Virus record (IMG/VR): IMGVR_UViG_2695420685_000022
Span: 1-34,422 of that record
Reading direction: 5' to 3' (one strand)
From: a virus
Lineage: Duplodnaviria; Heunggongvirae; Uroviricota; Caudoviricetes
Length of the DNA stretch: 34,422 nucleotides
Made by a program: the position numbers. Within the stretch, counting starts at the first letter, position 1. Each line of letters begins with the position of its first letter. Below, piece by piece: positions 9,001-12,000 of the stretch.

Positions 9001-12000
9001 TAAACAATCACTTGGGCCTCGCCGATTTTCTAGCGCGTATGTATTCGAAGGTGAACGAGGTAAGCGCGACAGCATCATTGTCGTCGCACAGCTCTGTCCT
9101 GAATTCACTGCTCGCCTGGTAGATCGCTGGCGCGAACTGGAAGAACAGATCCGTAAGCCAATGAGCGAAATCGAAATGGTTGCCGCGATGGCTCTTGAAG
9201 CAGTTCGTCAGCAGAAACGGATCACTCAGGTGGAAGAAAAAGTCAGCCACGTTGCTGAAACAGTCGAGCAAATTAAAAAGGGCACTATTCGTGAGGGCTA
9301 TGCCGGATATCGCCAACTGAAAGCAAAAACCGGTTTGTCAGATGATAAATGCCGCAATCTGGTGAACGCCTATCAGATTCCTACAGACACCCATGAGTTC
9401 ATGACGCCGGACGGATTGTTGTCACGTCGCGCAATTGTTGCTGTGGAACCGTTTATGGCTGCTTTTTATCGGGTTATGGAGGAAGCAGAACCGCGAGGGA
9501 CTCGCTGGTATCACCCGAAAATGGGGTTATTTCAGGTTATTGGTTGGCAGCGGTGAAAAAAAGCCGGGAGTAACCCGGCTCACTCAACATCAATAACGGG
9601 GAGCTGTTTCGCATAAAACGGCTCCGAAACATCCAAGAACAGTTCTAAAGATATCAGCAGCTATATGATCATTTCAAGACCAAATATTGATTCTGCAATT
9701 TCGGGACGTTACACTGTCTCCGCACCTTATAAAGCGGGTGCCGGGGGTCGCAGCCCGGAATTGTCAACGGCGATATATGACGCGCCAGCGTCTTTTTTAT
9801 CGTCCGCGCTCACGCACGCCAGAATTATGGTGGGCTGGGCAGGGGAGCCGAAAGGCTCGCCGGTCTCCGTTGACGCCGGTACTGCGAACCCTGTTCAGTC
9901 TGCCACCAGTGAGTTTCGCAGCTCCGGTGGTGGAAGTTTTCCACAGTCAACGGAGGCTGCCATCATGGCTACTGTCCCAACTTCCCCATACCTGAAAATT
10001 GAAGTTGTCAACGGCAAGGCCGTTATTTTCTCCCTGCATGTTGCCTGCCACTTTAAGCGAATGCACCAGAACATCGTTGACAAAATCGAGTATCTGAACT
10101 GCTCACGCGAGTTTTTTACCCGCAATTTCATACCGGGTACTTATCACATCTACGGTGACTCCCTGCGTGGTTATTACATCACTCTTGATGGCCTGATGAT
10201 GCTTCAGCTTGGGTTAAGTCTGCGCACAATGCGGTACTACGAGAGCTGCATTGAGGCATTCCATGAAGCTGAAACCAGCCTGAATCATACAGCTTTCCGC
10301 TGTAATCAATGGGAGGTGCGCCCATGATTCGCCGCCTCGTTAATTCTCTGTATCACCGACACAACCGTTGCCCCCGTGTGGGGCAGTGGTTCGCCACCAG
10401 CGACGGTCGCGTTCTGCGGGTTTGCCTGGTCAGCACCGAAAGCCAGAAAGTTGTGTGTGAATTACTGGGGCGTAACTACACCATCAGTTACCCACTAGTG
10501 GCGTTTCAGTCCGGAAAAATGTTTAAACGCCTGGGAGGTGGCTATGCGTCCGTCTGATCTTCTGCTCGATTTTGGGCATCCGGTTGCTTATTACCCTGGG
10601 CTCGTTAAATACATGGGAAGTCCGCACGCTGTTATTTTCTTTGGTCAGATTTTTTACTGGCAGGATAAAGCACATGCAGCGGAAGGCGTACATAAAACGC
10701 GTGAAGAGATACAACACGAAACCGGACTTACATTTGAACAACAGGCTGTAGCGCGTAAGCATCTTGTGTCCAGAGGCATTTTGGTTGAAACCAACAAGCG
10801 TCTTGAGCACAAAATGTTCTACCGTATAGATTGTGAGCGCCTTAATGAAATTATCAATGAAAACAATCAGTTTTCCCGAAATGGGGAAACCCGTTTTCGG
10901 GAAACTGTAAAACCCAATTTCGCGGAGGAGGGAAAGCCTTCACCGCGGACACGGGAAACCCCTCGCCGCGGTGAAGGGAAAACCAATTTCGATCTTACAG
11001 AGAATACAACAGAGATTACTTCAGAGAGTACTACAGAGAGTAAAAACACTATTGGCGCATCCGCTGACGCGTCTGCACCAGCGCGTTCTGCCCGACAGGA
11101 ATATTCACCGGAATTTGAACAGGCATGGCAGGAATATCCCAAACGTGCTGGTGGCAATTCCAAGTCAGCAGCCTTCAAAGCCTGGAAAGCACGTATCAGG
11201 GAGGGAATAAAACCGGAGAACATGCTTGATGGCGTGAAGCGGTATGCCGCCTGGGTGCGTGTCTCTGGAAATACCGGTACCCAGTTCGTGAAGCAGGCGT
11301 CGACGTTCTTTGGACCCGATCGTCATTTCGAGGAATCCTGGCAACAGCCAGCAGCCCCCGGAGGTGGGCGGGGCAAAAGCCTCCCGATCTCGGGATTCAG
11401 TGAACAGGACTACGGCTCAACGAACTTCAACTGGTGATTTTGTGGGGAGGGTGAAAATGACTAATTTCCTGAACAAACAACACATGCAACACGACAAAGC
11501 GCAGTTACTTAACCGCAAGGCAGACCTGGAAGAGGAGCTGGCATTTGTCCGTGGCGGAAAGCGTCCGTGGCGCTGTGAGCATTGGGTGCAAAGCACTGAG
11601 ACGGTGTCCTGCGGGAAACACGGAAAATACACGCGCTATGTGCTGACTGGCCCGGATGTAAGGGGGAAAGCTGTCAAACGGGTGTCCGGTTGCCTGTCCT
11701 GCCTCAGTGAGGAGCTGGGCCGCGTGTATGACGAATTACGCGCCCTGAAGGTTCGTGAATTACTCGATCAGGCCGGTATTGCCCGCCGGTTCCAGGACTG
11801 TGAGTTTGAGAATTATCAGGCGGTGAATACTGACGCACAGAAAAACCTTGAAGCCTGTCAGCGCTATGCCGCTTCCTGGAAGAAATGTCTCGCTGCAGGC
11901 ACCAGCATGGTCATGATTGGCAATTGTGGTACCGGTAAAAATCACCTGGCTGTATCAATGGCAAAAAATATTATTCGCCACCACCAGGCAACCATAGAAA

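Follow-up and report, generated by a model that had tools for sequence, protein, structure and literature searches.

The closest described systems

In the immunity region of phage P4 an internal constitutive promoter, P_LE, is followed by seqA, the CI RNA and seqC, all of them lying inside the eta/kil reading frame. The eta frame begins upstream of that promoter and is translated only from transcripts initiated further upstream, and its translation prevents immunity-dependent termination (Forti et al. 1999, to the extent summarised in PMC10111431). The locus compared with it here is a gap of about 400 bp among the early genes of a lambdoid prophage of E. coli, IMG/VR virus record IMGVR_UViG_2695420685_000022 (positions 1 to 34,422; this whole 34,422-nt stretch is called the window). 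The gap runs from the stop codon of a Rha-type gene to ATG 9965, the start of a gene for a 120-aa Rha-domain protein. It holds two RNAs, IsrK and C4, encoded in tandem, and is very probably an RNA 'immunity' switch of the P4/P1 type that gates the gene at 9965; the switch probably also gates the genes that are co-transcribed behind it.

The likeness to P4 lies in the two Rfam RNAs, their order and the logic of their a and b boxes; in a long open reading frame (ORF) matching Pfam PF10554 that runs from upstream of the internal promoter through both RNAs; and in the first well-initiated gene, which stands at the matching place and is entered through a common '..EAAIMAT..'. The two loci differ in what that gene encodes (a 65-aa Kil in P4, a Rha-domain protein in the window), in the place of the b1 box (at -180 in P4 and at -96 in the window, where the IsrK-to-C4 spacing is shorter), and in the start of the long frame, which is coupled to the upstream gene in P4 and uncoupled in the window. 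Moreover, P4 is a satellite, whereas the window module is part of a lambdoid early-right operon, ahead of O-, DnaC- and DnaB-like genes.

The isrK-orf45(STnc1160)-anrP locus of the Salmonella prophage Gifsy-1 (PMC4825925) likewise has an IsrK RNA with a terminator, a readthrough mRNA and a stable C4-like RNA downstream. An in-frame AUG stands at +107 from the IsrK start in Gifsy-1 and at about 106 nt in the window (ATG 9827), the downstream gene is a regulator of the antirepressor/Bro network, and the intervening frame is conserved in its nucleotides and not in its peptide. (Hfq binding by IsrK and trans-activation of the readthrough mRNA have been shown in Gifsy-1 only; PMC4825925.) The orf45-like frame of the window, in contrast, has no stop before the regulated gene and so is fused to it (166 codons from 9827); a Rha gene and a spacer take the upstream place that antQ holds in Gifsy-1, and the downstream protein is much shorter.

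In the immI operon of P1 and P7 (a1b1 - c4 - a2b2 - icd - ant), as in the window, a C4-family RNA lies upstream of its own targets on one transcript, and the ribosome-binding site used by the first gene lies under b2 (Citron and Schuster 1990, according to the account in PMC7313666). The window differs in lacking the icd/ant pair and in having an upstream element of the IsrK type with its own terminator, which scores 18.5 bits with the c4-a1b1 model. The window element is a previously unstudied member of the IsrK/C4 switches, those closest to it being the immunity region of P4 and the isrK locus of Gifsy-1.

The IsrK and C4 RNAs

An Rfam scan of the whole window at gathering thresholds finds IsrK and C4 one behind the other on the plus strand, C4 as a full-length match (coordinates and scores of these and other features are collected in Table 1). 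In phage P4 the isrK and C4 families match seqA and the CI immunity RNA, in the order seen in the window. A sequence-only reading of the same stretch had taken the gap for regulatory RNA territory and not for an ordinary coding region, which is true, but it had overlooked that the bulk of this territory consists of the plus-strand IsrK and C4 RNAs (9722-9910).

The fold of C4, a long closing helix around two hairpins, was followed through 38 distinct sequences from IMG/VR contigs and reference phages. Compensatory changes are present: 97.4% of cells are paired and both sides have changed in 15 of the 27 pairs. (Helix 3 of the fold is invariant only through its use in the retrieval pattern.) None of 500 shuffles scores as high, and sliding the partners against each other leaves 28-52% paired. 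The gap holds two RNA genes of known families, and the fold of C4 is attended by covariation.

The promoter of IsrK, the counterpart of P4 P_LE, is inferred to lie at 9689-9717. This sequence is unchanged across phiP27, ST64B, the Shiga toxin (Stx) phages and all types of the spacer that precedes it, and it aligns with the P4 region whose end, TATAGT, sits right before seqA. The homology of the module to many phages starts at, or just left of, its -35 hexamer.

Target boxes and the regulated gene

Exact complements of the b' loop and the a' tail of C4 occur twice, once upstream as a1 and b1 of IsrK and once downstream as a2 and b2 of the readthrough mRNA. The three copies of the boxes change together, through about 11 variants of a' and at least 5 of b', and throughout these variants a2 and b2 stay at a constant +56 and +87 from the C4 hairpin; their pairing was also examined by duplex prediction. 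The downstream b2 box overlies the Shine-Dalgarno sequence GGAGG that stands 9 nt ahead of ATG 9965. The gene that starts there occupies the position of P4 kil, and its 'MATVPTSPY' aligns with the 'MATTLTPSH' of P4 Kil.

A further plus-strand hairpin, AACGGCAAGGCCGTT plus ATTTTC, lies 45 nt into the Rha-domain ORF (10010-10024). Diverged relatives (L002 1660-1674; L003 1671-1685) have AACGGCAAAGCTGTT there, with pairing retained through G.T. This could be an attenuator-like site 3' of the C4 target, or a coincidence of the coding sequence.

By analogy with the described systems, the switch would work as follows. The constitutive internal promoter would make IsrK, and most transcripts would end at the IsrK terminator. 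Readthrough transcripts would carry C4, presumably to be processed out as in P1 and P4. Its b' loop and a' tail would pair with b2 and a2, hiding the Shine-Dalgarno sequence of the 9965 gene, and the pairing may also promote premature termination, as in P4 and P1. The a1 and b1 boxes of IsrK would be decoys or partners, such that the short IsrK competes for C4 or refolds the long transcript and turns translation on. (In Gifsy-1 it is the short IsrK that, working in trans, switches on translation of the readthrough mRNA from its own locus; PMC4825925.) The whole module is nested in the eta-like ORF; in P4 it is the translation of this frame, from upstream-initiated transcripts, that overrides the RNA block. 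Transcripts from pR would bypass the block or not according to whether the eta-like frame is translated, a step that is doubtful in this lineage. We infer RNA processing, control of termination, trans-activation by IsrK and anti-termination by eta from the literature on the analogous systems (PMC4825925; and, for P4, Forti 1999 and Sabbattini 1995 as far as PMC10111431 summarises them).

Several observations weigh against the switch as described. The proposed IsrK promoter agrees with consensus at only 8 of 12 positions and was missed by the promoter scan. The c4-a1b1 model of Rfam (RF03163) stays below its threshold of 46.7 bits, which is why the upstream element is filed under isrK. The regulated product is short (120 aa) and matches Pfam PF09669 only at threshold (30.0 bits, cutoff 29.9), and taking it for an antirepressor is an assumption. 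Finally, ATG 9665, the start of the eta-like frame, has no Shine-Dalgarno sequence and stands 108 nt past the Rha stop, so that it is uncoupled; the step in which translation overrides immunity may for this reason not operate here.

The eta-like frame and Pfam PF10554

The ORF 9665-10327 is the sole long frame in the gap, and its first 100 codons cross the internal promoter, IsrK and C4. The translation of 9665-9964 matches PF10554, Phage_ASH (Ash), with E 7.6e-14; within the ORF as a whole PF10554 spans aa 16-108 and PF09669 aa 123-203. The P4 eta ORF (L006 8168-8812, minus strand, 214 codons) matches the full PF10554 profile with E 4.5e-23. In P4 the profile falls on the old 'cI gene product' ORF, exactly over the CI RNA gene, and covers the stretch of eta over seqA-CI-seqC; it does not cover epsilon, the protein of which matches PF25738 only. 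P4 eta ends as the 65-aa Kil (MATTLTPSH...), and '..EAAIMAT..' is common to P4 and the window. The match of P4 eta to PF10554, the Kil alignment and the literature on eta together make the window ORF the equivalent, and the homologue, of P4 eta. The sequence-only reading had seen no convincing ORF in the gap. It is correct that no gene equipped with a recognisable ribosome-binding site lies between TGA 9554-9556 and ATG 9965, and the ORF list bears out that 9665-9964 is the only in-frame extension and has no Shine-Dalgarno sequence; the PF10554 match and the homology to eta speak against the claim in its full form.

One might instead take the region for what the databases make of it, the N-terminal 'Ash' domain of a Rha-family regulator of 220 aa, and deny it any function as RNA. 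The Pfam match is as strong as stated; GenBank and RefSeq records of identical sequences carry coding-sequence annotation only (an 'ash family' or 'Rha family' protein, or hypothetical), in line with the names given by the annotation pipeline PGAP; and in the literature on Stx phages Ash is listed among protein domains whose function is unknown (PMC8951638). Formally, then, Pfam and PGAP do return the longer Rha-family protein from 9665 that had been named as the outcome that would tell against a leftward RNA in the gap. The candidate leftward RNA (below) lies upstream of 9665, and this homology therefore bears on the claim of a gap and not on that RNA.

The pattern of substitution tells against a conserved Ash peptide. 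Over 312 nt the eta frame contains a stop in 4 of 58 distinct homologues, as against 46 and 58 of the 58 in the other two frames, and sequences with a stop in C4 plus spacer number 3, where column shuffles lead one to expect 27.5 +/- 2.9. Yet codon periodicity of the coding type is seen only 3' of ATG 9965: entropy at the three codon positions is 0.39/0.42/0.48 in C4, 0.77/0.72/0.61 in the spacer and 0.91/0.67/1.19 after ATG 9965, so that a third-position excess is wanting upstream, and the synonymous fraction in the eta frame is 0.20, compared with 0.23 and 0.13 in the other frames. Few stops without codon periodicity mean that the eta-like frame is held open by selection while the peptide itself is not conserved. 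The Ala/Ser/Gly-rich, 'low-complexity' peptide is a by-product of the G+C-rich RNA stems. The strong covariation of C4 and the co-variation of the boxes, the missing Shine-Dalgarno sequence at 9665, and the position of the PF10554 profile in P4 on the gene of the CI RNA, the experimentally established immunity factor (PMC10111431, in its summary of the P4 work), count against a purely protein-coding region as well, and such a reading can hardly be right.

PF10554 has been used as a marker of P4 epsilon (PMC8628076). By its place in P4, what it detects is the RNA immunity locus (the eta/CI-RNA stretch) and not the derepression protein.

Coupling of the eta-like frame to the upstream gene varies among related phages. 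In phiP27 the two overlap, the eta-like ATG sharing bases with the preceding stop codon (ATGA); in the sister Stx phages L020-L022 the frame begins 3 nt past the Rha stop and crosses a small coding stretch. The frame reaches further left in L020-L022 (1159-1350), L024 (683-1000) and L023 (987). The window spacer appears to have replaced the translational coupling of the sister phages.

A candidate leftward promoter-terminator unit

The spacer (125 bp, 9557-9684) lies left of the IsrK module and is a separate segment that occurs in three types (A, B and C), about 74% identical and with indels. It is found only between this Rha gene and the IsrK module, in 237 of 5426 complete E. coli genomes (9545-9700, chromosomal every time) and in 92 IMG/VR contigs; a blastn search of phages returned the segment only in the Rha-spacer-isrK context (9 records). 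On its minus strand stand a promoter-like site and an intrinsic terminator. This unit (9556-9677) is a separate, lineage-restricted feature, and its RNA product is predicted.

The hairpin with a U-run abutting the Rha stop, which the sequence-only reading had described on the minus strand, is there: seven T stretch from its stem (9581..9561) into the TGA, and it is the top-scoring terminator-like site in positions 1-20000 of the window. The minus-strand promoter proposed together with it does have its TTGAAA, 18 nt and TATCTT, but the match by itself is within chance, since the window yields 34 promoter-like matches against about 41 expected from shuffles. The promoter therefore needs other support, and the sole source of it is conservation among diverged spacers. 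TTGAAA, the 18-nt spacing and TG-g-TATTTT are present in types B and C as well, even though 7 of the 18 spacer bases differ, and the -35 is altered in only 1 of 35 distinct variants. An objective scan calls promoter and terminator in types B and C, as it does in the window, so that the conservation in related prophages that had been put forward as a check extends to three diverged spacer types. The core stem and the T-run of the terminator are likewise common to the types (the search pattern included the core stem, whose invariance among the retrieved contigs is thus partly by construction), while the loop differs between them both in length and in sequence; in types B and C an insertion in the loop supplies a ninth pair.

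The analysis gives two competing accounts of this unit. The first is an additional cis element, a leftward RNA of about 85 nt reaching from the promoter (9677-9648) to the terminator (9581-9556), comparable with the OOP RNA of phage lambda. In the stretch from the Rha stop to ATG 9665 it would pair with rightward transcripts derived from pR, and the pairing would trigger RNase III cleavage or bar ribosomes and RNA polymerase from the C4 module. The conservation just described favours such an RNA. So does the orientation of the terminator, the T-run of which exists on the minus strand only (the plus strand has none), with no leftward gene to the right that would need a terminator; in variant L190 a change in the stem makes a G.U pair on the minus strand only. 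The predicted leftward RNAs of four variants have folding z-scores of -3.5 to -4.25, and GUUCUUGGAU, close to the 5' end, is shared by types A and C, type B differing from it by one or two substitutions.

The second account has no functional leftward RNA. The spacer would be a mosaic joint that replaced a small coding gene of the sister phages, its leftward terminator insulating the Rha/cro/cI side from divergent or antisense transcription that leaks off the region of the IsrK promoter, which is strong and AT-rich; the role of the leftward promoter may be confined to competition with the IsrK promoter. In L020-L022 and in ST64B there is indeed a small coding stretch at this place, fused in frame to the eta-like ORF, and the ATGA overlap of phiP27 fits the same scheme. 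Spacer conservation peaks at both ends and is lowest in the middle. The leftward promoter and the IsrK promoter stand back to back with their -35 hexamers 11 bp apart, for which reason binding of RNA polymerase to the two should be mutually exclusive. An unrelated GC-rich C4 module, L137, has independently acquired two leftward terminators upstream, which fits insulation of the upstream genes from leftward transcription.

What the mosaic joint leaves unaccounted for is the conservation of promoter hexamers, TG extension and spacing in three spacer types. A pure insulator also needs neither the conserved island near the predicted 5' end nor an inner hairpin that keeps its position. In types B and C a different hairpin (CTGC/GCAG, CTTC/GAAG) occupies the place of the inner hairpin of the window, with one double compensatory change between the two. 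The inner hairpin could not be assigned to a strand from single substitutions, two favouring plus and one favouring minus; the two make G.U on the plus strand and A.C on the minus strand, and so count against the leftward RNA.

The comparison with OOP tells against the leftward RNA at its most specific point. In lambda, OOP covers a sizeable part of the 3' end of cII. It is 77 nt long, is cis-antisense to cII and acts in an RNase III-dependent manner (PMC12197685). The window resembles lambda in having a leftward promoter-like site between genes, on the right of an early gene that reads rightward, and a predicted short RNA (about 85 nt) that would end at an intrinsic terminator by the 3' end of the upstream gene. 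The OOP-like geometry claimed for the gap is only partial: promoter-like site, terminator and predicted size agree with it, and the overlap does not. The candidate reaches about 3 nt into the upstream ORF, its stop codon only, and no target of the cII type is present. With so short an overlap the leftward RNA cannot affect Rha in the way OOP affects cII. Nor are the two related in sequence or through Rfam. With the coding-end overlap failing and a sequence relationship wanting, the window element is not an OOP homologue.

Further points against the leftward RNA are that Rfam finds no family at threshold on the minus strand (weak, terminator-driven matches only), that promoter-like matches occur at chance density in the window, and that the spacer is confined to one Rha gene in E. 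coli prophages. A literature search found no published transcript at its position. Searches for partners and for a wider unit were equally unproductive. The conserved 5' segment and linker match no trans target in the window above chance, and the duplex with the isrK-C4-target RNA is no better than with dinucleotide shuffles in types A, B and C. The spacer is not part of a Rha unit, the 13 distant Rha loci (54-74% aa identity) having an abutting next ORF and no terminator; nor does a strong leftward terminator belong to C4 modules in general, since of 61 distinct upstream contexts other than the spacer 60 are without it. Weighing both sides, we regard the leftward cis RNA as tentative and on the doubtful side, and the mosaic joint as quite possible, if not quite probable; an insulating terminator with a competing divergent promoter is an equally good reading of the unit as a discrete leftward RNA.

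Two other candidates were rejected. One was a shared operator: the cI-cro region has no k-mer of 8 or more in common with the spacer or the IsrK promoter, and no operator-like inverted repeat was found. The other was a small minus-strand protein (31-aa ORF, 9632-9537); its frame crosses the terminator, its leader is 9 nt long, and type C does not conserve it.

Two related loci deserve mention. In L003 (1484-1571) a spacer of type C stands beside a C4 with b' loop TTTCCGTATGCGCC, unlike that of the window, and the spacer is thus not bound to one C4 specificity. In L137 (11578-12227; IMG/VR 2724679460_000005) the distantly related C4 module has b' TTCCTATGTC with matching b1 and b2. Its leftward terminators are a pair of hairpins, each preceded by an A-run, that lie about 285 and 405 nt ahead of the C4 hairpin, the first of them directly past the stop of a plus-strand ORF; the layout resembles that of the window and arose independently.

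Gene order, spread and other features of the window

The module follows a cI-type repressor gene, a Cro/YdaS-type gene and the upstream Rha-type gene. Downstream of the Rha-domain gene come a small ORF and then, on the strand of the module, O-like, DnaC-like and DnaB-like genes. Many prophages of E. coli have the identical or a near-identical sequence in their early regulatory region, Stx2a, Stx2d and Stx1a converting phages among them, and E. coli O145:H28 RM13516 and O157:H7 PV15-279 are lysogens that carry exactly this sequence; 9400-10100 has 96-97% identity with several Stx2a and Stx2d converting phages.

Elsewhere in the window, Rfam STnc100 (104.7 bits) matches 33543-33715 on the plus strand and is followed by a strong terminator (33740-33758); the whole, 33543-33758, resembles the short leader RNAs of late-promoter type. 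A plus-strand match to the sok antitoxin RNA (23116-23296) is, at 61 bits, barely above threshold, and a promoter-like site lies at 23081-23109, which together (23081-23296) suggests a hok/sok-type module in the prophage. Genes for tRNA-Met (CAT; 29961-30036) and tRNA-Arg (TCT; 30117-30193) are followed by a terminator (30206-30225). The plus-strand terminator hairpin GCCTTCC(G/T)CAGTGAAGGC then TTTTTTATTT is a repeated terminator cassette, with four copies at 15820-15837, 28077-28094, 28697-28714 and 30604-30621.

Table 1. Positions of genes, RNAs and sequence elements in and around the gap (numbering of the window)
Feature	Positions	Strand	Remarks
cI-type repressor	7739-8434	-	lambdoid E. 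coli prophage early region
Cro/YdaS-type gene	8562-8852	+	
Upstream Rha-type gene	8849-9556	+	stop TGA 9554-9556
Terminator U-run of minus-strand unit	9556-9562	-	TTTTTTT, encoded by A 9556-9562; reaches Rha stop TGA
Candidate leftward small RNA	9556-9641	-	about 80-86 nt, 5' end predicted; from promoter and terminator prediction
Intrinsic terminator of minus-strand unit	9561-9581	-	extended stem of 8 pairs, 6 G-C; core GCCGGG/CCCGGC 9563-9568/9574-9579
Inner hairpin of spacer	9600-9625		GGAGCTGTTT / AAACGGCTCC; strand of function undecided
Promoter-like site of minus-strand unit	9648-9677	-	TTGAAA 9677-9672, 18-nt spacer, TG-n-TATCTT (-10 at 9653-9648)
Eta-like nested ORF	9665-10327	+	220 aa; PGAP 'ash family protein' or 'Rha family phage regulatory protein'
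Inferred IsrK promoter (P4 P_LE counterpart)	9689-9717	+	-35 TTGATT 9689-9694, 17-nt spacer, -10 TACACT 9712-9717
IsrK RNA (P4 seqA / P1 a1b1 equivalent)	9722-9798	+	Rfam RF01394, 58.7 bits (gathering score 50)
IsrK a1 box	9748-9753	+	TCGCAG; co-varies with C4 boxes
IsrK b1 box	9763-9770	+	GTCAACGG; co-varies with C4 boxes
IsrK own terminator	9779-9798	+	hairpin 9779-9792, U-run 9793-9798; terminator-like site in scan
C4 / CI-type antisense RNA	9823-9910	+	Rfam RF01695, 78.8 bits (gathering score 45)
In-frame ATG	9827	+	position equals that of the Gifsy-1 orf45 AUG (PMC4825925)
C4 b' loop	9865-9874	+	CTCCGTTGAC
C4 a' tail	9882-9888	+	CTGCGAA
a2 box	9915-9921	+	TTCGCAG; complement of a'; C4 target region in readthrough mRNA
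b2 box	9946-9955	+	GTCAACGGAG; complement of b'; overlies Shine-Dalgarno GGAGG 9951-9955
Rha-domain gene	9965-10327	+	120 aa, ATG 9965, 3' of the gap

Implications

For profile-based annotation, PF10554 models the conceptual translation of an RNA locus, a frame that is open and a peptide that is unconserved, and this matters wherever the profile serves as a marker. For the phages, the IsrK/C4 gate has the pR-proximal genes on one side and the replication genes on the other. Since the O/DnaC/DnaB-like genes follow it immediately, in the same orientation, expression of the replication genes may, speculatively, be gated by the module too. An unlikely extension is that the leftward RNA of about 85 nt is a third, previously undescribed RNA, back to back with IsrK, and has in this lineage replaced the translational coupling that normally lets pR transcripts override C4 immunity. 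If this were true, its pairing with pR readthrough RNA ahead of the eta-like start would decide passage of the C4 gate, and passage would govern the Rha-domain gene and the O/DnaC/DnaB-like genes, amounting to a three-RNA switch in Stx-type prophages. The P4-type IsrK/C4 gate offers a testable handle on the control of induction and replication in Stx-type phages.

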